UHGV virus genome: UHGV-0026823 | Reading direction: 5' to 3' (one strand) | DNA: 36,673 nt | Origin: a virus | Part shown: in pieces, positions 11,590-36,673 of the stretch | Layout of the letters: each line of letters starts with the position of its first letter | How positions within the stretch are numbered: position 1 is the stretch's first letter | The notes under the pieces: model-generated | What the model saw: only the letters and a program-made list of their open reading frames with translations | What the model was told of the DNA's origin: nothing | Database searches by the model: none | Program-made: the position numbers and the translations under genes

Positions 11590-12222
11590 TTATTGTAATA
11601 ATCCTTTACTCTCTTTAAAATTAAATCCAGCTTCAAGCATAGCCAAAAACAGATCTAATGGTGTAACTGCATTTGAATCAATACCTTTAAATTTTTTAGT
11701 TACATATCTTAACGCTGTGTTATTATCAAATATTGGTTCTTTAATAGCATCTAGTACTAATCCTGAACAAATATATTCATCTTTAGGTTTTCCGTTATCT
11801 TTACGTAAATGCCCTTTAGATAAAAATTTAAAGATTGATCCATAAGAATAATGATAATTAGAAGCTTTAGCTACATATTTAAGAGCAAGATAAGGATCAC
11901 AATTTTCGGAGATTGTAGTTCTCATAATAAGGGATTTACTAGTATGAATGTCTACATCTTCTCGTTCAAGAATTCTAGTTCCTTTTTCAAAAATTTTAGA
12001 TCCAGTATCATCTTGTTTATATGTTGATGATTCAAAAATAATATTGTTATCAAGAATTAAAAGAACATGACTTGGAATAAACGTTCCTGTATCCTTCTGT
12101 TTACAAATCATTTTAGATACTTTTGAGATTGCTTTAGATAGATTTGATGTTCCTTTACAAAACACAACTTCAAGTCTGTGTCCCATTCTATTGTTTCCTT
12201 TCATCTTTATTATTATGTTCAT
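11590..12222 (-). CDS. Hypothetical protein, 210 aa.
   Basis: ORF only. No P-loop. A His...Cys pair (PSHVLL ... EYICSGLV) is insufficient to call a peptidase. Confidence 0.4.
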   Translation of the reverse strand: MNIIIKMKGNNRMGHRLEVVFCKGTSNLSKAISKVSKMICKQKDTGTFIPSHVLLILDNNIIFESSTYKQDDTGSKIFEKGTRILEREDVDIHTSKSLIMRTTISENCDPYLALKYVAKASNYHYSYGSIFKFLSKGHLRKDNGKPKDEYICSGLVLDAIKEPIFDNNTALRYVTKKFKGIDSNAVTPLDLFLAMLEAGFNFKESKGLLQ

Positions 12223-12748
12223 TAATAAGACATATCATTCTTATATTGCTATCAACATGTGCTTCATGAGGTAAGCCAGATTCATCATCAATTGGGTTTA
12301 TATATTCACCTTTGTAAGCGTGTCTAAATATTGCTGGTACTAATATATACGGATCAAGCTTTAAGAAATCCCAATCAGGATATTTTGTTGAACCAAAATT
12401 GAATACTTGTAGAATTTCACTTGGATTAATAGGTTGAATATTAGGACATAATTTATTTTCAATTAAGTTCATTGCATAATCAACTAAAGTCATTATTTCG
12501 ATATCGTCTTCGCTAAATGTTGATCGACCAACAAGATCTCTTAAATATTGTGGAACAAGCTCTTGTAATTGCTCAAGAGACAGGTGCATTACTAAATAAC
12601 CAAGTGGATTTTTAGGATATGATTCCATACAAGTAGTAAGATCATATTTAGGCGCTATTTGAAATTGAATGAGAATGTTCTGTATATAGCAATATTGTTC
12701 CCATTTATCCATTTTTTCTAACTTATTGTAAAGATATGTTAATGACAT
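12188..12748 (-). CDS. Hypothetical protein, 186 aa.
   Basis: The ORF has a good SD (AAAGGA) 7 nt upstream. Confidence 0.45.
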   Translation of the reverse strand: MSLTYLYNKLEKMDKWEQYCYIQNILIQFQIAPKYDLTTCMESYPKNPLGYLVMHLSLEQLQELVPQYLRDLVGRSTFSEDDIEIMTLVDYAMNLIENKLCPNIQPINPSEILQVFNFGSTKYPDWDFLKLDPYILVPAIFRHAYKGEYINPIDDESGLPHEAHVDSNIRMICLINEHNNKDERKQ

Positions 12749-25920: not shown

Positions 25921-26274
25921 TTAAATATCCTTATAAGATTTCCATTTGATTCCATTTTTATCACAGTAATCTGCATAACTTGTCTTAGAACCTTTATTAA
26001 TTTTGATATTAGGGTTTTGAAAAACCATTATAATCTCATATTCTGGATGTTGGTCAACTAGTAATTTCATTTTCTTTCGATCACTTGCTGTCCATCTTCC
26101 TTTTAATTCATAAATTAATTTACCACGAACAAAATCAGGAGTGTATTTATGTTTAGATTCAGGTATTGTGTAGTCAATTTTTATAGGTTCATATTTAAAT
26201 CCAAGATATTCTAGGTGTTTTGATAATCGCTCTTCGAATTTACTTCTGAACTTTGAATTTTTCTTCTTCACCAT
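25921..26274 (-). CDS. Endonuclease I, the Holliday-junction resolvase, T7 gp3 homologue, 117 aa.
   Basis: Clear similarity to T7 gp3: HKYTPDF vs HTYTPDF, KGRWTASDRKK vs KGLWESDDRKK, QHPEYEIIMVF vs QHPELDIRIVF, and KGSKTSYADYCDKNGIKW vs KGSPTSYGEFCEKHGIKF. Confidence 0.85.
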   Translation of the reverse strand: MVKKKNSKFRSKFEERLSKHLEYLGFKYEPIKIDYTIPESKHKYTPDFVRGKLIYELKGRWTASDRKKMKLLVDQHPEYEIIMVFQNPNIKINKGSKTSYADYCDKNGIKWKSYKDI

Positions 26275-26629
26275 TACTTAACCTTATAATTAATTTGTTA
26301 TCTCCTTTTTCATCATCATCGAGTTGAGAAAATTTAATAACAATATTTAATAATTTATCAACTTGTTTTAATATATCAGCATCGCCTTCAGTCATTAATG
26401 TATCAACCTGTTTTAAAAGATTTGATCTGATCCGTTGAAATTTAACTGTTAACATTGCTGCTACAAGCTTGCAATATTCTTTATCTTTAAATAACTCATC
26501 AAGAAATTTAATAACTTTTATTGGAGTTAATTCTCGATATTTATTAGCTACATATCTTTGAAGATCTTCACCTTCAATATCATGACTTGCTAGGTCAAGT
26601 AATTCTTTTTCACTTAGATCTAAGGCCAT
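26240..26629 (-). CDS. Hypothetical helical acidic protein, 129 aa.
   Basis: ORF only. Confidence 0.4.
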   Translation of the reverse strand: MALDLSEKELLDLASHDIEGEDLQRYVANKYRELTPIKVIKFLDELFKDKEYCKLVAAMLTVKFQRIRSNLLKQVDTLMTEGDADILKQVDKLLNIVIKFSQLDDDEKGDNKLIIRLSNGEEEKFKVQK

Positions 26630-26888
26630 TGATTATCTCCGTTAGTTTAATTAATAGTTTATTTATTTCTTTTTCTCGAAATATAAAACGTAGAAATTTA
26701 TATACGCCAGGATCATTAAATCCTATTTCAACAAATCTCTGGCGCCTGCAATAGATTAAAAATAAATATTTACAATTTTGGACAGAGGTATCATAGAATG
26801 CGCTGTGTAATCTGAATCTATTTTGACCGGGCGTATATAAAACTTTGGTGATTGCAACTCTTAAAGAACAGATATTATAGAATTCCAT
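26610..26888 (-). CDS. Hypothetical protein. The start is trimmed to the internal Met (MEFYNICSL...), giving 92 aa. The longer 118-aa version would overlap the upstream gene by 77 nt.
   Basis: The internal ATG lies 1 nt after the upstream stop (TGACATGG). Confidence 0.35.
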   Translation of the reverse strand: MEFYNICSLRVAITKVLYTPGQNRFRLHSAFYDTSVQNCKYLFLIYCRRQRFVEIGFNDPGVYKFLRFIFREKEINKLLIKLTEIINGLRSK

Positions 26889-26889
26889 G

Positions 26890-27408
26890 TCACAGCCTAC
26901 GTTTAATTGTATCAAGGTTAACTTGTTGAGTGTGAACTTTAGCAGAAGATCTAGTACAAGCATCATTAATATACATTACTGCTTCACTTGGAGATACTCC
27001 TGATAAAACAAGATAAAGAGAGGTTAAAATTGGCTGAAGGTAGTAGTCATCAGCTAGAACATCAGTCTCTGAAGTAACAAAATTTTTAATTGTTCCGTCA
27101 TCTAGGTTTTGAAATAATCCAGTTCGAATAGTAAATGCTGATGTATCTGATGTATTAATTGTACCATCAGGATTCATTTCACAAGGTTTACCATTTTTTA
27201 GGAAAGCTATTCTATCAGATACTTTCGCTGGATATTTAGCTTTTGGCTCACCTTCAAGAGGAATTTCAACTATATATTGAGGTGTATTTGAAAGGGATAA
27301 TAGTAAGTTTAAATAACCAATTATCTTTTGTATACATCTGTGGGTTGGCTCTATTGGATAATTTATTCTAACCGCAAGAGCTTTATAAATATCAGTTACA
27401 TTGCTCAT
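26890..27408 (-). CDS. Hypothetical protein, 172 aa.
   Basis: ORF only. Confidence 0.45.
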   Translation of the reverse strand: MSNVTDIYKALAVRINYPIEPTHRCIQKIIGYLNLLLSLSNTPQYIVEIPLEGEPKAKYPAKVSDRIAFLKNGKPCEMNPDGTINTSDTSAFTIRTGLFQNLDDGTIKNFVTSETDVLADDYYLQPILTSLYLVLSGVSPSEAVMYINDACTRSSAKVHTQQVNLDTIKRRL

Positions 27409-27697
27409 TAGGAATACTCCAACATAATTCTGCTACATTGTAATTTTCAATTTGTTTTTGCATCCATGTTTCAAGGTAAGATTCAAAAGACCATTGCATA
27501 TCTTCATCAATGTTATAAACTATAATAACATCAACAGATTCAACTTTTGGATCTAGTTCAAATTCGTATGTTCCATTACCTTGTCTATGATTTCTGTAAC
27601 AAATTGATTTAATTTCACCAGCTAAATTAACTTGTTGTTTTAATTTATCAATTAATCCAACTGGAATATTATCAAATAATTGGGTGTTTTCAGCCAA
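27392..27697 (-). CDS. Hypothetical protein, 101 aa.
   Basis: ORF only. Confidence 0.45.
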   Translation of the reverse strand: MAENTQLFDNIPVGLIDKLKQQVNLAGEIKSICYRNHRQGNGTYEFELDPKVESVDVIIVYNIDEDMQWSFESYLETWMQKQIENYNVAELCWSIPNEQCN

Positions 27698-27699
27698 TA

Positions 27700-28053
27700 T
27701 TAAACTCCTTCTTGAGGTGGTACATCTGCTGCTTGTTCTTCTTCAACTAATTCAGACATTAATAGTCTAAATAATGATTGAGCTCCTTGAGGAGTGATAC
27801 CTAGAGCATCAGATAAAACTGCTGTCATAATATCTTCAGCCGTAATTTCTTCATCTGCTAGTCCTTGAGCTACAGCTTCAACTACTTGTTGATTGTTTGC
27901 AGCTACTTGTTCAGGTGGTATTTGTTCAGTAGATGCTGCTACTTCTGGAGTTACTGGAGGTTGTTCTGCTGGAGCTGTTGCGGCTGTTACTTCTGGTTGA
28001 ACTGGTGCTGCAGCTGCTTGTGGGTTTTCTTTTGGCGGTAAATTCATTGACAT
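27700..28053 (-). CDS. Highly acidic Pro/Ala/Glu/Val-rich low-complexity protein, 117 aa. It has about 20 acidic and 2 basic residues.
   Basis: Direct reading. The nucleotide composition is a GC-rich outlier and the N-terminus contains repeated PEV/PPV units. Confidence 0.5.
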   Translation of the reverse strand: MSMNLPPKENPQAAAAPVQPEVTAATAPAEQPPVTPEVAASTEQIPPEQVAANNQQVVEAVAQGLADEEITAEDIMTAVLSDALGITPQGAQSLFRLLMSELVEEEQAADVPPQEGV

Positions 28054-28064
28054 ATTGTTATCTC

Positions 28065-28370
28065 CTATTTAAATTTTATTTGTAGATTATACATTCCAGA
28101 TTCAATATTATGATTGAATTTAACATATTCTACATTATCTAATTTGTTTAAATGATTAACTATTTTATCAAGGATAATCATTCCTTTTATACTAGCAAAT
28201 CCAACACATTCAACCAAGTAGGAAAGGTGAGTATTGAGTGCGAGTGATTTAATCAGCCGTTTGTAGTTGAACGGACCTTGATTGAAGTGTGGATGAACTA
28301 GTGTTATTCGTTTTTCTTGTTTATTAAATATTATTCTTTTTGTATAAGGTAATATTTCATCTAACCACAT
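28065..28370 (-). CDS. Hypothetical protein immediately downstream of the ThyA-family gene, which it overlaps by 10 nt, 101 aa.
   Basis: ORF only. It is translationally coupled to the upstream enzyme gene. Confidence 0.45.
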   Translation of the reverse strand: MWLDEILPYTKRIIFNKQEKRITLVHPHFNQGPFNYKRLIKSLALNTHLSYLVECVGFASIKGMIILDKIVNHLNKLDNVEYVKFNHNIESGMYNLQIKFK

Positions 28371-29164
28371 TTTATAAATTCCTGAGCAAATTTAGATTTA
28401 AAATAATGCAATGCGTCTTTATCTTTTTCAGATAGTGATTTTAAATAATCTTTTAATTCTTTTGGAGAGCTGAATTCATAAGGATTAAATGGTGTATAAT
28501 TCTCAAAGAAACTAGGTGGGTTGTCAATTATTGTTACAGCTTTACCAAAATGTTGCTCATATATATGTTGAGAACCTGCATTAATTGAGATGTCTCCTAA
28601 TTCAAGAGTTATACCTCGTTGTTTCAGGCATAACATTATATACCCAGTTAGCATTGTAAAATTAAATATATCATAAGGAAGTCCTAACCAAATGTCACTT
28701 GACCTCATGTTATCTATACAATAAATTCTTCCATTTCTAATAAACCATTGAACTGAAATTGTACAAGGAATATCTTTAGATTCTCGTGGATTAGGCCTCC
28801 AGATAGTCATAACAGCCTGTCTAGAGTCAGGATCTTTTTCAAGTGTATCAACAATATATCTAATTTGGTCTACAACTCTTGGACCATATGCACCATCAAA
28901 ATGAATACCATCATTTGAGAATGTTGAAATAGCTTTTGAGTAATTAGTTATTGTATCAACAGAGTTACGACCGTCCATAATCCACCATGCTTCACGAACC
29001 ATAAATCTATATCCTAATTTACGTTCAGCGATTGATAGAATTGGATAACGCATATCGACTGTAAAATGCTGATTTAATAATTCTTTAATTAAAAATCCAC
29101 GGGGTTCATGGATTTCACCAAATCGTAATAGTTCTCCTAATCTAGTATACCATTCTATATTCAA
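28361..29164 (-). CDS. Thymidylate synthase-family pyrimidine C5-transferase, 267 aa. It carries the dCMP-hydroxymethylase-type specificity residue, so it is predicted to be a deoxycytidylate hydroxymethylase or methylase rather than a dTMP synthase.
   Basis: Alignment to E. coli ThyA: REAWWIMDGRNS vs HELLWFLQGDTN, DPDSRQ vs DPDSRR, the catalytic Cys in IPCTISVQW vs APCHAFFQF, RSSDIWLGLPYD vs RSCDVFLGLPFN, and GSQHIY vs GDTHLY. The Asn177-equivalent position (LGLPFN) is Asp (LGLPYD). Confidence 0.75.
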   Translation of the reverse strand: MNIEWYTRLGELLRFGEIHEPRGFLIKELLNQHFTVDMRYPILSIAERKLGYRFMVREAWWIMDGRNSVDTITNYSKAISTFSNDGIHFDGAYGPRVVDQIRYIVDTLEKDPDSRQAVMTIWRPNPRESKDIPCTISVQWFIRNGRIYCIDNMRSSDIWLGLPYDIFNFTMLTGYIMLCLKQRGITLELGDISINAGSQHIYEQHFGKAVTIIDNPPSFFENYTPFNPYEFSSPKELKDYLKSLSEKDKDALHYFKSKFAQEFIKCG

Positions 29165-29848
29165 TTAAATTTCTCCTTTATCAATAGCTTCAACTGCAAA
29201 TGAAGCGTAATTAATTAAATCAAGTAATGTATCTCGGATACTTTCATTATTAGGTTTTTTAGTTTGTTGAGCTAGAGAATTTAATCTTTGGGTTTTTGTG
29301 TGTAACATTTGGGCATATGATAATAAACCAAATGGAAAATAGTTTGCTCGAGATTGGGGTTTATCAGAACCATTATTATAATCTTGAGATTTCTTTATAG
29401 CAATTTTAGTTACTTCTTTGAATACGTCTGGGATATTTTGAATTATTTCATATTCAGCAATAAAGCTTTCAGGGTGATCTAAAATTTGTTTAATCTTTTC
29501 TTCAGGACCAATCCAAGTAGATGGTTTAGTTGCATCTGTATCTGAACCACGACCTTTATTACCTTTATTCTTTTTTAGATTACATCTATAAACTTCATCA
29601 AATGCAAGCTCAAATTCTTTTTCAGAATATCCAAGTTCTTGAGCTCGACCTATTACAAAGAATATTAAATCAATAATAGCGTCTAGCATTCCAACTCGAT
29701 CTAAAGCATCATGAGCGTGCATAAACTCTGTTAATTCTTCGTTAACTACAGTTTTAAACCATTCACGACGTTCTTCATTTAAAAATGGAGTTGATTTAAG
29801 TTTAATTATTCTATCATTAAAATCTTTTACTTTTCTAAATTCAAACAT
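29165..29848 (-). CDS. MazG-like all-alpha nucleoside-triphosphate pyrophosphohydrolase, a candidate dCTPase or dUTPase, 227 aa.
   Basis: EELTEF ... DALDRVGMLDAIIDLIFF fits the MazG/HisE EExxE...D..D helix pattern. The stop abuts the start of the ThyA-family gene (29164/29165). Confidence 0.5.
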   Translation of the reverse strand: MFEFRKVKDFNDRIIKLKSTPFLNEERREWFKTVVNEELTEFMHAHDALDRVGMLDAIIDLIFFVIGRAQELGYSEKEFELAFDEVYRCNLKKNKGNKGRGSDTDATKPSTWIGPEEKIKQILDHPESFIAEYEIIQNIPDVFKEVTKIAIKKSQDYNNGSDKPQSRANYFPFGLLSYAQMLHTKTQRLNSLAQQTKKPNNESIRDTLLDLINYASFAVEAIDKGEI

Positions 29849-29851
29849 TAA

Positions 29852-30226
29852 TTACTCCCAAGGCATTTTATGTTCATCTGGTTTAGCTGCTGTTTTCTTT
29901 TTAGCTGGAGCCTTTTTAGCAGCCGGTTTAGTATCAAACATTTTATTCATAGCTGCTTTATATTCTTCAACTTCTTTTTCTGTTAGTTTTTCTATTACAG
30001 CTTCACCAGTAATAATTGGATTTCCTGCGTCTTTACGTTGGTATACAGGACCATGGATTCTTAAGTAATCACCCTTTTTAATATCTTCACCAGGTTTAGC
30101 AAAATTTAAAAAAGATAATCCATTTGATACAACATATCTTTTATCTTCGAATGTTGCTGTTACAAAGAAAACACCTTTAACTACAAGTGGATTAGGGTTT
30201 TTCTTAATTTGTTTTTGTTCTGACAT
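29852..30226 (-). CDS. Putative DNA-binding protein, possibly an OB-fold SSB-like protein, with a Lys/Ala/Pro-rich C-terminal tail (KPAAKKAPAKKKTAAKP), 124 aa.
   Basis: The composition and a beta-rich N-terminal core support this. It sits in the gp2.5-like genomic position relative to endonuclease I and lysozyme. The SD is strong (AAGGAGG). Confidence 0.3.
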   Translation of the reverse strand: MSEQKQIKKNPNPLVVKGVFFVTATFEDKRYVVSNGLSFLNFAKPGEDIKKGDYLRIHGPVYQRKDAGNPIITGEAVIEKLTEKEVEEYKAAMNKMFDTKPAAKKAPAKKKTAAKPDEHKMPWE

Positions 30227-30255
30227 AGGTTAGTTCCTCCTTTTATTTTTTGAAC

Positions 30256-30275
30256 ATATAAATATTATACCCAGA
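30256..30275 (-). promoter_or_regulatory. Sigma70-like promoter element, copy 2 (minus strand TCTGGGTATAATATTTATAT). It lies about 30 nt upstream of the SD of gene 29852-30226.
   Basis: TATAAT plus a downstream ATTTATAT block identical to the copy at 36321-36334. G at -14 is retained. Confidence 0.45.
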
Positions 30276-30297
30276 TTAATTATAAATATAACATAAA

Positions 30298-30786
30298 CTA
30301 TTCTTTTTCTTTACATTTCTTAATATACCAGTTAATTTTATTTCGAAAATAATCCTGAACTTGAATTGGAGTTAGCTCTGTTTTCCAAGGTAGATAAGTA
30401 ATGTCAACTTTACCTTGTTTAATATTATGAGCTAAATCAAATCCATAGTGAGTATAAACTTGAGTTACTGGAATTTTATATTTTATACACATTCGGGCTG
30501 TGAGTTGACACATTGTTTCAAATTGAATATTAGTTATTGGAAATCTAGAAATCTTATCTCGTAAATTAAAATTAAAATTACAACAAGCAGCTATTCCTAT
30601 TGAGCCAGTATTTCCTCGTAAAGTGTGAGCTGCATATTTTCCATCAGATACATCCTCATTATCTTCTGGTTTATATTTACCACAATAAATATGACCTAAA
30701 TTATCAATTAAATAATGATAAGCTTTTTTATCTGTGTTGTTTGGAATATAACTTCCGGCAGTATGATGTAATATTATTCGTTTCAT
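30298..30786 (-). CDS. N-acetylmuramoyl-L-alanine amidase, T7 lysozyme (gp3.5)-like and PGRP/Amidase_2 family, 162 aa.
   Basis: N-terminal ILHHTAG, the central AAHTLRGN..SIGIAACCNF block and the C-terminal YTHYGF pattern resemble the T7 lysozyme layout (HCSAT, GSHAKGYN..SIGVCLVG, AHHEVAPKACP). Confidence 0.7.
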   Translation of the reverse strand: MKRIILHHTAGSYIPNNTDKKAYHYLIDNLGHIYCGKYKPEDNEDVSDGKYAAHTLRGNTGSIGIAACCNFNFNLRDKISRFPITNIQFETMCQLTARMCIKYKIPVTQVYTHYGFDLAHNIKQGKVDITYLPWKTELTPIQVQDYFRNKINWYIKKCKEKE

Positions 30787-30787
30787 T

Positions 30788-30934
30788 TTAATCCTCTATT
30801 GGTCTATGATATGGGCATTCAGTTACTTTAGCAGAATCTTCATAGCATTTTCGCAATCTACAATAACATAGTGAATCTTCTAATGCTATTATTTTTGTAA
30901 AAATACATTTATTACAACATCTTTGTTTTTCCAT
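30788..30934 (-). CDS. Cys-rich mini-protein, 48 aa (MEKQRCCNKCIFTKIIALEDSLCYCRLRKCYEDSAKVTECPYHRPIED). It was missed by the ORF cutoff.
   Basis: It fills the gap exactly. The upstream stop and this start are spaced TAAAATG. Its own stop is followed by the amidase start (TAAAATG), and its 3' end supplies the AGAGGA SD for the amidase. Confidence 0.45.
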   Translation of the reverse strand: MEKQRCCNKCIFTKIIALEDSLCYCRLRKCYEDSAKVTECPYHRPIED

Positions 30935-30935
30935 T

Positions 30936-31184
30936 TTAATTTATTCCTATATAAAAGATACCATCACGGACTCTATTTGATTCAAATATTATTTTATTAA
31001 GTTTTGGGAATTTTAGAATTCCAGTACAAATATAATGTGAATCAGTTAATTCATATAAATAATGAAGGAATTCAAGATATAAATTTTTACTAATATAAAT
31101 TCTGCAATCTTTTAATTCTAAAAGTTTACGAAATGTTAAATATAAATCCTTTTTAGTGCTATATTTGAATTGTAAATATTTCAT
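30936..31184 (-). CDS. Hypothetical early protein, 82 aa.
   Basis: ORF only. Confidence 0.4.
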   Translation of the reverse strand: MKYLQFKYSTKKDLYLTFRKLLELKDCRIYISKNLYLEFLHYLYELTDSHYICTGILKFPKLNKIIFESNRVRDGIFYIGIN

Positions 31185-31768
31185 TTTAGTAGATTCTTAT
31201 AATAATTAAATTCAATAATTTTCATTCTTTCAATTCTAGAGTTAGTGCTTGGATGAGTTGTTGTAGTTGTATTCATTTTACTTGGAGCAGTTAATCTAGT
31301 TAAAGCTTGAGGAAGATTATTTGGAGTGCTTGTGATTAAACAATATCTTGTTGCAAACTCATCTGCTGCAAATTCTTGGGAATTTCTAAATTTAATTAAT
31401 TCTTTTTGATCGAGATTCCAAAACTTTAAAAATTTATCCTGTTGTTTATAATGTTTAAGTACTCGGTGACCAACTTCATGAAGAGCTACAGCACGAACTT
31501 CTTCATAAGATAAATAATCAGTTAATCCAGTTGTTAATATAATTTCACCTTGATATGTAGTATATCCTTGAGGAATATATGATACTGGAAATTTAACAAC
31601 ACATGAATCTTTTAAGCTAGTACAGATTGATTCTGCTTCTTGTTTTATTTTGAGTTGCTCATCAATAGTAATTGCATTACAAGTTAAAGGAATCATCAGA
31701 ATTAATAATATTATTAATAAATTTTTTCTTATCAACTTTTTCCTCCAAGATTGAGTTAAATAGTTCAA
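31181..31768 (-). CDS. Secreted zinc metallopeptidase of the M48/M56-like (HtpX/Ste24-type) zincin group with an N-terminal signal peptide, 195 aa.
   Basis: The signal peptide MNYLTQSWRKKLIRKNLLIILLILMIPLTCNA has a basic n-region, a hydrophobic core and a CNA cleavage motif. HEVGH is the HExxH motif. The downstream NSQEFAADEFA matches the M48 third-ligand E-F-x-A-D motif. Confidence 0.6.
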   Translation of the reverse strand: MNYLTQSWRKKLIRKNLLIILLILMIPLTCNAITIDEQLKIKQEAESICTSLKDSCVVKFPVSYIPQGYTTYQGEIILTTGLTDYLSYEEVRAVALHEVGHRVLKHYKQQDKFLKFWNLDQKELIKFRNSQEFAADEFATRYCLITSTPNNLPQALTRLTAPSKMNTTTTTHPSTNSRIERMKIIEFNYYKNLLK

Positions 31769-32267
31769 TTATATCCTCATTTTCAAGATTAGATAATAAG
31801 TTATTTGTAAATCTAAAATGAATTGGAATTTTACTTGATTCTACGAGATTATAATAACTCTTCCAAATGGTGCCATTCTTTACGTAGAAATCTTTTGGTC
31901 TTGAGAATAGTGATATTAATTTTAGCAATAATATTAAATTTTCGTTTGCGTTGTCGCATAATTCTAATATTAATCCAGTGTAATTTCCATGCGTTCCTTC
32001 AATATCAAGGCTTGGAACTAATAATTTCATATCCCTATAAAATCGACCACGTTCTTTTCTATTTCTAAATCGATCGTCGACACGTATATAAAGATATAAT
32101 CTTTTAAAGCGTCTACGTAAATAAAATCTTAACGTTGTATGTTTTAAAATTGTTTTTTTAGTTATTGTTAATGCTACTCTTTGAGAAAAGTTTTGAGCCA
32201 TTGATATTTTATTTAAGATAACGTTTATAAAGTTATTCGGGTCTTTTCTTTTTACATTTGCAGTCAT
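31677..32267 (-). CDS. Hypothetical Arg-rich basic protein, 196 aa. Its 3' end overlaps the protease gene by 92 nt in another frame.
   Basis: ORF. The overlap is unusually long, so one of the two boundaries may be wrong. Confidence 0.35.
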   Translation of the reverse strand: MTANVKRKDPNNFINVILNKISMAQNFSQRVALTITKKTILKHTTLRFYLRRRFKRLYLYIRVDDRFRNRKERGRFYRDMKLLVPSLDIEGTHGNYTGLILELCDNANENLILLLKLISLFSRPKDFYVKNGTIWKSYYNLVESSKIPIHFRFTNNLLSNLENEDIIELFNSILEEKVDKKKFINNIINSDDSFNL

Positions 32268-32583
32268 TTTTAATTACTATTCCTGTATTCATATCAGTTA
32301 TATGCATAAGAGCTCGAGCTCTGTTACGAAGGAATTCAATTTGCCCTTCATTGGCTGGTCGATTATTATAATAATAAACTAGATTATTATTCTGGATTCT
32401 TCGTTCACATCCACAAGTAACTCCAGAATGTAACATAAATCTAACCATTGTTGGTTTATCATAGAATTTATAGATATGATTTTCTATTTCATAAAGACAA
32501 TCATTGTTTTTAAACAGGCGCATATTAAAGTTATCAATTAGTTTGATTTTATTTATTTGAAATTTAATCTTTTTTACTTTCAT
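32233..32583 (-). CDS. Hypothetical early protein, 116 aa.
   Basis: ORF only. Confidence 0.4.
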   Translation of the reverse strand: MKVKKIKFQINKIKLIDNFNMRLFKNNDCLYEIENHIYKFYDKPTMVRFMLHSGVTCGCERRIQNNNLVYYYNNRPANEGQIEFLRNRARALMHITDMNTGIVIKNDCKCKKKRPE

Positions 32584-32951
32584 TATTTATCGCAATATCC
32601 TAATATTATATTAAATGCATCATATTTTAAGCTATGTACGTCTTCTAATATTCCTGGAAGCATTGAGTCTACAATTTCATCAACTGTATAATTTCCAAGA
32701 TTAATATTATAATGCTGAACAGCATATCTAATTCCTGCTTTTACTGCTGTAGTTGCTAAAGCCCGTTCAACTTCAATAACTTCAGGTTTACTCATTAAAT
32801 CAAGTCTTAATTTGCAATAATTCCGCAATCCTTGAATAAAATATCGACGAACTTTATTAATATCAAAAGTATATTTAGGATTTACATCATAGAGAAATGT
32901 TTGAGCCGTTGCAAGATTAGATATATATCGTTTTAATCTTTTTATATTCAT
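32583..32951 (-). CDS. Hypothetical early protein, 122 aa.
   Basis: ORF only. Confidence 0.4.
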   Translation of the reverse strand: MNIKRLKRYISNLATAQTFLYDVNPKYTFDINKVRRYFIQGLRNYCKLRLDLMSKPEVIEVERALATTAVKAGIRYAVQHYNINLGNYTVDEIVDSMLPGILEDVHSLKYDAFNIILGYCDK

Positions 32952-32953
32952 AA

Positions 32954-33445
32954 TTATTCACCTCTCAAATAATTCTTCAATCGTTCTTCTCCAATTTCTT
33001 GAATTGCTACAAGTAAAAAGTTCTCATCTAGGCAATAAACTGTACCTTGAGTTTTACTCCCACAAACTGAATATGTTTTAATGCCCCAAGAATTATGATA
33101 GCTAATATACCGCTTGAATTGATTTTCGTCATCCCAATCAATTTTTTTGCCTTTATTTAACCTTTTAGCAATATCTTCAAGTTGACGTCTCACTAAAATC
33201 TTTTCTGCTTCTGCTTCAGCTTGCTCACGAGTGCGAAATACATTATAGAGATTAAACATATCATTGTTATAACAAGTGTCAAACCATTCGTCAGTTGTAG
33301 CTTCCTCATATCTGTTTAATGCATAGTACTTTTCACCTTCTTTGGGTTTCCATCTCTTGTACTCGCATTCTTCCAACATCTTTTTCAAATTGGAAAGATG
33401 TTCTTCTGTTTTGTTGATTTCTTCTAATATTTTTTGTTTATTCAT
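32954..33445 (-). CDS. Hypothetical early protein, 163 aa.
   Basis: ORF only. Confidence 0.45.
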   Translation of the reverse strand: MNKQKILEEINKTEEHLSNLKKMLEECEYKRWKPKEGEKYYALNRYEEATTDEWFDTCYNNDMFNLYNVFRTREQAEAEAEKILVRRQLEDIAKRLNKGKKIDWDDENQFKRYISYHNSWGIKTYSVCGSKTQGTVYCLDENFLLVAIQEIGEERLKNYLRGE

Positions 33446-33615
33446 TTATTATCCTTTAAAATTTTATTTATTCTACTATAAAGGCAACTGTCATAAATAT
33501 CACAATCAGAATTACAAACGGTACATTTACAGTCTAGAATTTCTATTTTAATTAAATCAAGTTTGTTTTGTAGTTTAGATACTAATGCAGTTAATCTATT
33601 TATTTCATTTTGCAT
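33442..33615 (-). CDS. Cys-rich mini-protein, 57 aa (MQNEINRLTALVSKLQNKLDLIKIEILDCKCTVCNSDCDIYDSCLYSRINKILKDNK). It has an N-terminal coiled-coil-like segment.
   Basis: It fills the gap. Its stop overlaps the next start (ATGA). Confidence 0.45.
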   Translation of the reverse strand: MQNEINRLTALVSKLQNKLDLIKIEILDCKCTVCNSDCDIYDSCLYSRINKILKDNK

Positions 33616-33618
33616 AAT

Positions 33619-33912
33619 TTATCCTTTAATTGATTGGAGTACTTGAGATAAGATATCACGAGCAGTTGCAAGGACAACTGATTTAACCTTTGTTAGATGT
33701 TTGATTTCTTCTTCTGGTGCTTTAACAAGAGTAAATAAATGTTTAATCATTTTTAATTTACTTAAATCTAAAGTTATTGTTAATTCTGTTAAAGTAATTG
33801 GTTTTTCAGTTACTTCATATTTTAAGTCAAGTTCTTTCATTCGCTCATCTAATTTCTTAAGAGCTTCTTCTTTGGTGTCTTCTGTTACAATTAATTTTCC
33901 GTCAATTTTCAT
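33619..33912 (-). CDS. Hypothetical early protein, 97 aa.
   Basis: ORF only. Confidence 0.4.
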   Translation of the reverse strand: MKIDGKLIVTEDTKEEALKKLDERMKELDLKYEVTEKPITLTELTITLDLSKLKMIKHLFTLVKAPEEEIKHLTKVKSVVLATARDILSQVLQSIKG

Positions 33913-33914
33913 AG

Positions 33915-34133
33915 TTAAATAATCCTTTCTAATTCTAAATCTGATAAATAATAAGAATAAACTTTTGAGGCTTTTCGTTCTCGTAGTCTTGTGTTCATCT
34001 TTTTAATTTTATTTTGAATTTCTTCGGCTGTGTCAGGGTCTACAAAAGATTGTCGAGAAAATTCACCTGTTTTTCTATCTCGAATTGTTAAAACACCTTT
34101 TGAGTATCCTGTTAAATATCTTTTCATTGACAT
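33915..34133 (-). CDS. Hypothetical early protein, 72 aa, with the start moved to the ATG (MSMKRYL...). The ORF track uses an upstream TTG.
   Basis: A GGAGG SD lies 7 nt upstream of the ATG at 34133. Confidence 0.45.
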   Translation of the reverse strand: MSMKRYLTGYSKGVLTIRDRKTGEFSRQSFVDPDTAEEIQNKIKKMNTRLRERKASKVYSYYLSDLELERII

Positions 34134-36429: not shown

Positions 36430-36673
36430 CGGAATCTTTTTCTTTCTTTTCTTTTATATATTTAATTATTAATGTATACAAATTATATATTTAATATATA
36501 ATGTATATAAATTTATTATATATATTTTTATATACAGTTTTTTTTAAATAATTATATATCTACTATAGAACAAATATATATCTATTATATTTTAAATCTA
36601 TAATGATAATATATATCTATTATATAATCTATAAATATATTATCTAATCTAAGATATTAAATCTATTATGTAT
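36430..36673. repeat. AT-rich non-coding end region. ATATATCTA repeats lie at 36554-36562, 36576-36584 and 36611-36619, with TATATA runs between them. It is related to the left-end repeats.
   Basis: Direct reading. The 14-mer AAATATATATCTAT occurs at 36573-36586 and at 87-100. Confidence 0.55.

Follow-up and report, generated by a model that had tools for sequence, protein, structure and literature searches.

By what route could a small phage, with few genes to spare for the task, replace the cytosine of its DNA before replication? The question is raised by UHGV-0026823, a viral DNA of 36,673 nucleotides (the window, by which we mean the whole of this stretch), in which a gene for a two-domain protein resembling nucleoside triphosphate (NTP) pyrophosphohydrolases directly precedes one for a homolog of thymidylate synthase (ThyA). 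By replacing cytosine before replication, phages gain a major protection from restriction enzymes and CRISPR nucleases, and such phage pathways are a source of enzymes for epigenetic sequencing. We argue here that the two genes constitute a cassette which probably, to judge from active-site residues and gene context, degrades deoxycytidine triphosphate (dCTP) and makes the 5-hydroxymethyl derivative of deoxycytidine monophosphate (5hm-dCMP) before replication, such that virion DNA would contain 5-hydroxymethylcytosine (5hmC) in place of C. A preliminary description, made from the letters of the DNA, had already proposed that a dCMP-specific ThyA-family enzyme and an all-alpha NTP pyrophosphohydrolase (PPase) form a putative cytosine-modification module, and both the specificity residues and family-level metagenomic data (MetaGPA, see below) agree with this proposal. 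It had missed, however, the C-terminal DUF1599 domain of the upstream protein, which is probably the most informative feature of the locus. All genes of the window are carried on the minus strand, including the open reading frames (ORFs) at 28065–28370, 28361–29164 and 29165–29848; the features on which the argument turns are the following.

29165–29848, minus strand: gene for a two-domain protein of 227 amino acids, with an N-terminal PRA-PH/MazG-like NTP pyrophosphohydrolase and a C-terminal DUF1599 domain (Pfam, phrog_18404)
29474–29848, minus strand: PRA-PH/DR2231-like all-alpha NTP-PPase domain (residues 1–125), proposed to be a dCTP (possibly dUTP) pyrophosphohydrolase
29168–29473, minus strand: linker and DUF1599 ('nucleotide modification associated domain 1'; residues 126–227), with three long helices
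29162–29185, minus strand: gene junction, with the AGGAG Shine-Dalgarno sequence, the TAA stop of the upstream gene and then the TTG start of the ThyA-like gene, AAAGGAGAAATTTAATTGAATATAGAATGG
28361–29164, minus strand: gene for a thymidylate-synthase-fold enzyme of 267 amino acids with a TTG start, a predicted deoxycytidylate 5-hydroxymethyltransferase (5hm-dCMP synthase; Pfam PF00303 and signature residues)
28772–28774, minus strand: codon of Asp131 (Leu143 in E. coli, Asp145 in T4 gp42), three residues before the catalytic Cys; hydroxymethylase signature
28763–28765, minus strand: codon of the catalytic Cys134 (Cys146 in E. coli)
28670–28672, minus strand: codon of Asp165 (Asn177 in E. coli, Asp179 in T4 gp42), the determinant of cytosine versus uracil

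Predicted substrate and product of the ThyA homolog

The product of 28361–29164 is a member of the thymidylate synthase superfamily. It matches Thymidylat_synt (PF00303) with an E-value of 5.5e-23 and 81.9 bits against a cut-off of 24.3, as well as four PHROG families named 'thymidylate synthase', and it contains the catalytic Cys, the phosphate-binding Arg and Ser and the folate-site Glu and Asp. In the numbering of the E. coli enzyme, which is used for positions such as Asp143 and Asp177 below, E58, Y94, R126, C146, R166, S167, D169, H207 and Y209 are all conserved. The full scaffold claimed in the preliminary description thus holds up, all the motifs named there being found (DIPCTIS, MRSSD, DPDSRQ, GSQHIY and LGLPYD). 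The protein is nevertheless not a canonical ThyA, as it has Asp177, Asp143, Thr147 and Met165 instead of Asn, Leu, His and Gln, and its C-terminus cannot be aligned. It also misses the cut-off of every NCBIfam thymidylate-synthase equivalog model, the best of these reaching 71 bits where 108 to 327 are required.

Asn versus Asp at position 177 separates a uracil from a cytosine substrate (PMC6400193, PMC8670742). The segment R-S-S-D-I-W-L-G-L-P-Y-D of the query aligns without a gap to R166-S-C-D-V-F-L-G-L-P-F-N177 of the E. coli enzyme, and D165 is therefore the equivalent of residue 177 whatever alignment method is used, as had been read from the motif originally. In HMMER alignments to solved structures this Asp lies opposite the Asp of MilA and opposite Asn in the thymidylate synthases. 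Each of the 120 closest homologs, out of 2,902 in the database, has this Asp, and so do all 53 copies at related loci that fall outside an SPO1-like branch, the copies of that branch (loci L042–L044) having Asn. The comparison with characterized families that had been suggested as a check used an alignment of the query, 52 locus homologs, E. coli ThyA, T4 gp42, SPO1 gp29 and a segment of MilA; in the E. coli reference Cys146 and Asn177 fall as expected, and its alignment is consistent with those made by HMMER to thymidylate synthases of solved structure. The query residues in this alignment are R126, D143, C146, T147, M165, S167, D169, G173 and D177. Asp177, Thr147 and Met165 are the residues of both gp42 and MilA, whereas SPO1 gp29 has Asn at all three positions and ThyA has Asn, His and Gln, respectively.

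The likely product is indicated by position 143, which is Leu in thymidylate synthase. The D145N variant of T4 gp42 does not form 5hm-dCMP (PMC6400193), L143D/E correlates with hydroxymethyl products, and D169N marks the 5-hydroxy-dCMP synthases (PMC13326640). The query possesses the gp42-type acidic residue three positions before the catalytic Cys (D131, within K-D-I-P-C), which it shares with gp42, MilA and SPO1 gp29. A 5-hydroxy-dCMP synthase of the RB69, DLP3 or RL38JI type was rejected, as the query retains Asp, not Asn, at 169 (D157), and a dUMP hydroxymethylase of the SPO1 gp29 type was rejected on the grounds of Asp, not Asn, at 177. A dCMP methylase of the Xp12 type would be expected to combine a non-acidic residue 143 with a linked dihydrofolate reductase (DHFR), as Xoo-sp2 and L055 do with Asn143, whereas the query has Asp143 and the window lacks a DHFR gene. 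With respect to the sugar, K133 and A176 underlie the preference of MilA for CMP over dCMP, and the K133R/A176S double mutant prefers dCMP (PMC6400193); the corresponding residues of the query are Arg115 and Ser155. Taken together, the active site reads as that of a cytosine-specific, deoxyribose-type, hydroxymethyl-forming enzyme and not a 5-hydroxylase, and the best prediction is the conversion of dCMP to 5hm-dCMP. Between the two modifications proposed initially, 5-hydroxymethyl- and 5-methyl-dC, Asp143 therefore favours the former; the latter is disfavoured by the presence of Leu at this position in thymidylate synthase and of Asn in the Xp12 relatives.

In a neighbour-joining tree the query is located in a large phage clade, the nearest characterized relatives of which are MilA (35% core identity to the query) and SPO1 gp29 (26%), with gp42 (23%) further out. 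The query was thus not accepted as an ortholog of gp42, which lies outside the clade of the query, MilA and SPO1 gp29 and aligns to the query in phmmer at an E-value of 2.5e-9; the enzyme appears to work like gp42 without being its ortholog.

Three genes of isolate phages likewise carry Asp177, Asp143 and Thr147: those of Pseudoxanthomonas phage PW916 (L051, 3280–4098), Agathobaculum phage AB434P2 (L053, 3838–4500) and Pelagibacter phage HTVC200P (L002, 5956–6774). They are annotated as 'deoxyuridylate hydroxymethyltransferase' or 'thymidylate synthase' and, on the basis of these residues, more likely encode dCMP hydroxymethylases. In HTVC200P a gene for a Tmk-like kinase is positioned directly upstream of the ThyA homolog, which suggests that some pelagiphages may modify cytosine.

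The upstream protein and the position of DUF1599 in related modules

The N-terminal half of the upstream protein matches PRA-PH over residues 23–78 (29.8 bits, cut-off 21.3), and the full-length protein matches phrog_18404 (8e-38). The MazG/HisE-like acidic pattern noticed earlier is borne out as the metal-binding motifs E37-E38-x-x-E41 and D56-x-x-x-D60. An AlphaFold2 (AF2) model of the protein has a predicted local distance difference test score (pLDDT) of 88.8, and the best structural match of the PPase domain is DR2231, described as a MazG-like NTP pyrophosphohydrolase. Profile, acidic motifs and helical-bundle fold are all those of the all-alpha NTP pyrophosphohydrolases (MazG, HisE and DR2231), and the domain is classed here as a putative pyrophosphohydrolase of the DR2231/HisE type. 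The parallel with T4 gp56 that had been drawn survives as a functional analogy but not as detectable homology, neither BLASTP (E 0.32) nor hhalign with the profile of the domain (E 0.1, confined to one helix) giving a significant match to gp56; the domain is a functional analogue of gp56 and not a detectable homolog. A PRA-PH gene or domain occurs immediately upstream of the module in approximately 50 related loci, and 161 database proteins resemble the upstream protein, nearly all of the best 120 of them carrying both domains by Pfam. The TTG start of the ThyA-like gene directly abuts the TAA stop of the upstream gene, with AGGAG 8 nucleotides upstream, and the two genes are, as first described, a translationally coupled two-gene cassette.

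The DUF1599 domain (PF07659) is matched with 31.8 bits in the full protein (residues 176–219; cut-off 25) and with 30.5 bits in the isolated domain, and is the most conserved part of the upstream protein. Across 91 fused and free copies K153, D156, Y157, F173, K185, R188 and S191 are invariant, while Y170, F171, G174, S177, E202, D206 and T207 are 99% conserved. Fused and free copies alike display the core K-K-x-x-D-Y-N...Y-F-P-F-G...H-x-K-x-x-R-L-x-S-L...E-S-x-R-D-T-L-L-D-x-I-N-Y. The name of the domain reportedly goes back to Iyer and colleagues in 2013. DUF1599 occurs in four phage lineages, fused in the 36-kb group of the window and in a 55-kb gut group (L055, L056, L060 and L061), and free in the groups of L062 and L064. 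In these lineages it is always encoded directly upstream of an Asp177 ThyA homolog, save for unrelated inserted ORFs of 107 amino acids in L061 (5891–6214) and 165 amino acids in L050 (4441–4938), neither of which matches a family; the L050 gene has no Pfam match and, on reading its sequence, no Walker A motif. Because of these insertions tight stop/start coupling is not universal. Nor does DUF1599 always travel with a pyrophosphohydrolase, as in the 44-kb lineage of L064 (5024–7572) and L065 a free DUF1599 gene is followed by a ThyA homolog and a deaminase, and a PRA-PH gene could not be recognised in the vicinity, the upstream ORFs of 217 and 85 amino acids being without a family match.

The position of DUF1599 becomes informative when it is set against that of the deoxynucleoside monophosphate (dNMP) kinase. 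In 58 loci with an Asp177 ThyA homolog, ORFs were called and the neighbours, within 5–10 kb on each side, were classified by iterated profile searches. DUF1599 was present and a P-loop kinase absent in 12 loci, the reverse was true of 41, both were absent from five, and no locus contained both. A naive Fisher test of this exclusion gives p = 7e-9, a value that overstates the evidence since the loci are not independent; indeed the 12 DUF1599 loci stem from four lineages only. The exchange can be seen most directly by comparing L045 with L062, which share the same backbone (flanking proteins overall 59–78% identical; PRA-PH, ThyA and deaminase 70–78%). The slot between PRA-PH and ThyA is occupied by a 183-residue kinase in L045 (9469–10020) and by a 96-residue DUF1599 protein in L062 (6001–6291). 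The common module, found in the 41 kinase loci, comprises PRA-PH, a P-loop Tmk-like kinase, the Asp177 ThyA homolog and a dCMP deaminase; among its carriers are Manatee Spring podovirus MW202510, Pseudoxanthomonas phage PW916 and L045, the ThyA homolog of which is 64% identical to the query. In the window and in L048–L050, its close relatives, the module is reduced to the PRA-PH-DUF1599 fusion and, after it, the Asp177 ThyA homolog, kinase and deaminase being absent from all of them. In the window the only ORFs with a Walker A motif are those of the terminase and the DnaB-like helicase, and the profile of the module kinase finds nothing; together with the Pfam scans this upholds the earlier statement that neither a P-loop dNMP kinase nor a glycosyltransferase is recognisable there.

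The same fusion accompanies a different type of ThyA homolog. A tblastn search with the DUF1599 domain matched 87 isolate phage records, including the Xp12 relatives Xoo-sp2, Bosa, DLP4, PaMx28, PaMx74 and AAT-1; the same search matched 22 records of phages infecting Bacteroides intestinalis DSM 108646. In Xoo-sp2 (L066, 6515–9175) the fusion, annotated as 'HAD superfamily hydrolase', is followed by a ThyA homolog (N143, P147 and D177), a dCMP deaminase and DHFR, and the 55-kb lineage (L055, 8001–10738, with L056, L060 and L061) shows the same order of fusion, ThyA, deaminase and DHFR-like genes, its ThyA having Asn143, Pro147, Leu165 and Asp177. No dNMP kinase was found in Xoo-sp2 by the kinase profile or a Walker-A scan covering 57.7 of 60.5 kb (95%). 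A report of 1982 is said to have described a 5-methyl-dCMP kinase activity induced by Xp12, which is not used as evidence here. The AXL1 paper lists no dNMP kinase for the group of Xp12 relatives. All C is replaced by 5-methylcytosine (5mC) in Xp12 and PaMx74; deaminase-linked Asp177 ThyA homologs, that of Xp12 included, make 5-methyl-dCMP (5m-dCMP) in vivo, and the adjacent deaminases act on 5m-dCTP (bioRxiv 10.1101/2024.12.05.627091). The module of fusion, Asn143 ThyA, deaminase and DHFR thus looks like a 5mC pathway, and the methylase behaviour of the Asn143, DHFR-linked subfamily strengthens the view that Asp143 marks the query as hydroxymethylase-type. Moreover, DUF1599 modules without a P-loop kinase exist in phages that demonstrably replace all their cytosine, by analogy with which the two-gene cassette of the window is plausibly sufficient.

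These data raise the question of how 5hm-dCMP, or 5m-dCMP in Xp12-like phages, reaches the triphosphate. The alternation of kinase and DUF1599 in one operon slot gives the domain a testable role in the pathway, namely that it supplies, without a P-loop, the step taken by the dNMP kinase in sister modules, from the 5-substituted dCMP to the di- or triphosphate. This is a speculative proposal, and we consider it rather unlikely to be correct in this form. DUF1599 could be a kinase of a new fold. Alternatively, it could be the acceptor-binding half of a pyrophosphoryl transfer, for example dCTP + 5hm-dCMP giving dCMP + 5hm-dCTP, an idea that arises because the domain is fused to, or encoded directly after, an NTP-PPase in three of the four lineages; if true, two genes would be enough for a closed cycle. 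Host kinases alone may instead suffice. Should DUF1599 indeed have such a role, the pathways of Xp12, the classic 5mC phage, and of many phages from gut and rumen would no longer lack a step, and 5hmC DNA could be made in vivo with a compact tool of just two genes.

Borders of the cassette and the phage backbone

The limits of the cassette are set by relatives that lack it and by the gene on its downstream side:

28065–28370, minus strand: flanking gene of 101 amino acids (ORF101), part of the backbone and outside the module

As previously noted, this small gene overlaps the 3' end of the ThyA-like gene, the overlap with its stop being 10 nucleotides (ATGTGGTTAG). The loci L057–L059 have the gene order of the window, with an M48 peptidase, the amidase, a 124-residue gene, ORF101 and a 117-residue gene, and the longest contig, L059, continues as in the window with genes for 102 and 172 amino acids; the matched proteins are 31–67% identical to their counterparts. 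In these loci (L057, 579–1297; L058, 118–839; L059, 3148–3844) the amidase, the 124-residue gene, ORF101 and the 117-residue gene occur without either module gene, no trace of the two being found by tblastn. ORF101 and the ORFs down to 26890 therefore belong to the backbone. The arrangement points to a clean two-gene indel between the 124-residue gene and ORF101, by which the PPase and ThyA genes appear to have been gained or lost together. The suggestion that the ORFs at 26240–28370 might perform the downstream steps did not survive this comparison, as they are kept in the same order in relatives that have neither module gene. ORF101 itself represents a small family, which numbers 18 representatives when clustered at 50%. 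The family has a conserved H-P-H motif, the P-H of which is invariant, as are a Tyr and two Gly elsewhere; the AF2 model of ORF101 is alpha/beta and confident (pLDDT 94.7), with generic structural matches only.

The phage has a T7-like replication set (endonuclease I, family-A DNA polymerase, 5'-3' exonuclease and DnaB-like helicase), together with a terminase and an amidase, in an AT-rich genome of approximately 30% GC. Most of its large ORFs are without a family match, and about half of all ORFs in the window match neither Pfam nor PHROG. A DNA-level search of 26001–34000 against 50,697 phage records returned only a stretch of about 260 bp within the ThyA gene, at 68–71% identity, and no close sequenced relative of the phage is therefore present across this region. 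To judge by the labels of their records, the relatives of the phage stem from metagenomes of the gut or rumen. Beside the DNA polymerase gene, an ORF of 186 amino acids (12188–12748, minus strand) has a marginal match to PF18909 (29.2 bits, cut-off 27), the N-terminal domain of dATP/dGTP diphosphohydrolases of the MazZ type of Z-genome phages, and may encode a second NTP pyrophosphohydrolase. Among the scanned ORFs of the window no family match to a PurZ-type enzyme was seen, and BLASTP gave no alignment of this ORF with the DUF1599 domain. The motif ATATATCTATWATA occurs three times (90–103, 36576–36589 and 36611–36624; 0.01 expected by chance), in each case in the AT-rich non-coding ends of the window, and these repeats could be promoters or terminal repeats. 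Because related contigs are 35–37 kb, the window is probably a nearly complete genome, the ends of which meet at the ATATATCTATWATA repeat region.

Predicted pathway, alternatives and known systems

In the pathway that we propose, the PRA-PH/DR2231-like domain would hydrolyse dCTP, and possibly dUTP, to the monophosphate and pyrophosphate, both removing canonical dCTP and supplying dCMP. The second step, for which the active-site residues are calibrated on characterized enzymes, would begin with attack of Cys134 on C6 of dCMP, Asp165 recognising and protonating the cytosine, followed by transfer of a one-carbon unit from methylene-tetrahydrofolate to dCMP. Asp131, which stands where thymidylate synthase has a Leu that excludes water, would activate a water molecule, so that water rather than hydride would quench the exocyclic methylene, yielding 5hm-dCMP and tetrahydrofolate. 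Finally, 5hm-dCMP would be converted to the triphosphate either by host kinases or with help from the fused DUF1599 at the kinase position of the module, and the family-A DNA polymerase of the phage would incorporate 5hm-dCTP. The default prediction is 5hmC without additional decoration, since no transferase that could add one was detected.

Several points weigh against this pathway. DR2231, the best structural match of the PPase domain, prefers dUTP; substrate preference is not readable from the sequence of such a domain, and it is gene context that suggests the dCTPase role. T4 requires its own kinase, gp1, to take 5hm-dCMP to the triphosphate, and no gp1-type kinase is encoded in the window. 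Published in vivo assays co-express a phage kinase (PMC13326640, bioRxiv 10.1101/2024.12.05.627091). A kinase or transferase may yet be hidden among the approximately half of the ORFs that match no family. The characterized enzymes nearest to the query are just 23–35% identical to it in the core, and no published assays of its immediate clade were found. Furthermore, the water-positioning pair Ser94-x-Tyr96 of gp42 is only half kept, with Tyr retained as Y93 of the query and Gly clade-wide at the Ser position, while Ser or Thr is reported at gp42 position 94 (Park et al., PMC6400193); in our alignment MilA likewise has Gly in this column.

It could be argued that 5hm-dCMP and 5hmC are intermediates, and that an unannotated ORF decorates the base further with a sugar, a carbamoyl group, an amino acid or the like. 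Many 5hmC phages do modify the hydroxyl group further, which is glucosylated in T4 and carbamoylated in metagenomic phages (PMC8670742), and the large unannotated fraction of the window leaves room for such an enzyme. We nevertheless regard this as unlikely, as no glycosyltransferase, carbamoyltransferase, kinase or aGPT-type domain was detected in the window (Pfam, scanned ORFs of at least 82 amino acids, in the case of the transferases), and the neighbouring ORFs, being present in relatives without the cassette, are not its dedicated partners. It is also quite unlikely that we are dealing with an Xp12-type dCMP methylase, which would make 5m-dCMP and give phage DNA with 5mC rather than 5hmC. 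Asp177 is enough by itself to make a dCMP methylase of thymidylate synthase (Liu and Santi 1992, as cited in PMC8670742), and the PRA-PH-DUF1599 fusion also accompanies the ThyA homologs of relatives of Xp12, which like PaMx74 is fully 5mC-substituted. At position 143, however, the query has Asp, as opposed to Asn in Xoo-sp2 and the 55-kb lineage and Leu in thymidylate synthase; the window has no DHFR to recycle dihydrofolate and the query no thymidylate-synthase-like C-terminal tail, and the tree places the query in an Asp143 clade far from the Xp12-type branch.

A role in nucleotide supply, by pool sanitation or a thymidine-like nucleotide route, would leave canonical C in the virion. Such a role would fit the AT-rich genome and the lack of an encoded kinase, and there is a precedent in the Xp12-type deaminase, which converts 5m-dCTP to dTTP and so feeds thymidylate synthesis (bioRxiv 10.1101/2024.12.05.627091). 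With no deaminase detected in the window, however, the phage cannot turn 5hm-dCMP into a uracil or thymine derivative, and to make 5hm-dCMP without using it would be wasteful; in addition, contigs in which C is fully modified show a strong enrichment of Asp177 ThyA homologs. This explanation is accordingly very improbable. Least credible, to the point that we would be surprised by it, is the ribonucleotide CMP as the substrate. Although MilA, which acts on CMP, is the top sequence match in the PDB (1.5e-20) and the most similar characterized enzyme, its K133 and A176 are replaced in the query by the Arg and Ser with which the MilA double mutant prefers dCMP, and the gene is located in a phage replication region, adjoining an NTP-PPase.

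The class of modules that pair Asp177 ThyA with PRA-PH is already known and has been linked experimentally to fully cytosine-modified phage DNA (PMC8670742). In the MetaGPA study (Yang et al. 2021, eLife; extended in bioRxiv 10.1101/2024.12.05.627091), phage DNA was selected in which all cytosines were resistant to APOBEC3A after TET2/BGT protection; ThyA was the most strongly associated domain, with positions 177 (Asp) and 147 as the top discriminating residues, and PRA-PH, dCMP-deaminase and MafB19-deaminase domains co-occurred with ThyA on modified contigs (PMC8670742). PF07659, PF01503 and PF00303 are not mentioned in the portion of the MetaGPA supplementary files that was available. The MetaGPA modules consist of Asp177 ThyA, PRA-PH, a gene of the dCMP-deaminase family and often a dNMP kinase. 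The query belongs to the same ThyA clade, with 60–68% identical homologs in operons of PRA-PH, kinase, ThyA and deaminase, and shares with these modules Asp177, a residue other than His at 147 and an adjoining PRA-PH-type pyrophosphohydrolase. In contrast, the unit in the window has two genes only, with neither deaminase nor P-loop kinase, and a DUF1599 domain is fused to its PPase. As a further member of a described class the locus is unsurprising on that count alone; its value lies in the minimal form, in which two genes enter or leave the backbone as a unit, without kinase, deaminase or transferase.

The predicted logic, destruction of dCTP followed by hydroxymethylation of dCMP, is that of T4 gp42, gp56 and gp1, and the query is identical to gp42 at positions 126, 143, 146, 147, 165, 167, 169, 173 and 177. 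It differs in having Gly at the position of Ser94 and Gln at that of Arg127, and the window has neither a gp1-type kinase nor a glucosyltransferase and a PPase not detectably related to gp56. The best solved relative (E 1.5e-20; PDB 5b6d and 5jnh) is MilA, the CMP 5-hydroxymethylase of mildiomycin biosynthesis, which has in common with the query Asp143, Thr147, Met165 and Asp177 and differs at 126 and 167, where MilA has Lys and Ala (Lys133 and Ala176 in its own numbering) and the query Arg and Ser; MilA is a bacterial enzyme of secondary metabolism, whereas the query is a phage enzyme. SPO1 gp29, the dUMP hydroxymethylase, is closer to the query than is gp42 (E 1.2e-19) and shares Asp143 and Gln127, but has Asn at 177, 147 and 165 and a long C-terminal extension.

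In the Xp12/Pamexvirus 5mC module, as in the window, the PRA-PH-DUF1599 fusion is immediately followed by an Asp177 ThyA homolog. The ThyA of that module, however, belongs to another subfamily (Asn143, Pro147, Leu165 and Trp80; the L055 representative has 28% core identity to the query) and is in Xp12 a methylase, and it is accompanied by a deaminase and DHFR, neither of which occurs in the window. The module of the window is thus a reduced variant, in which a hydroxymethylase-type ThyA is paired with a PPase-DUF1599 fusion that was otherwise encountered in 5mC phages. To what was known of these systems the present analysis adds a two-gene cassette that is absent from syntenic relatives, the mutual exclusion of DUF1599 and the kinase, and the occurrence of the PPase-DUF1599 fusion in the relatives of Xp12.

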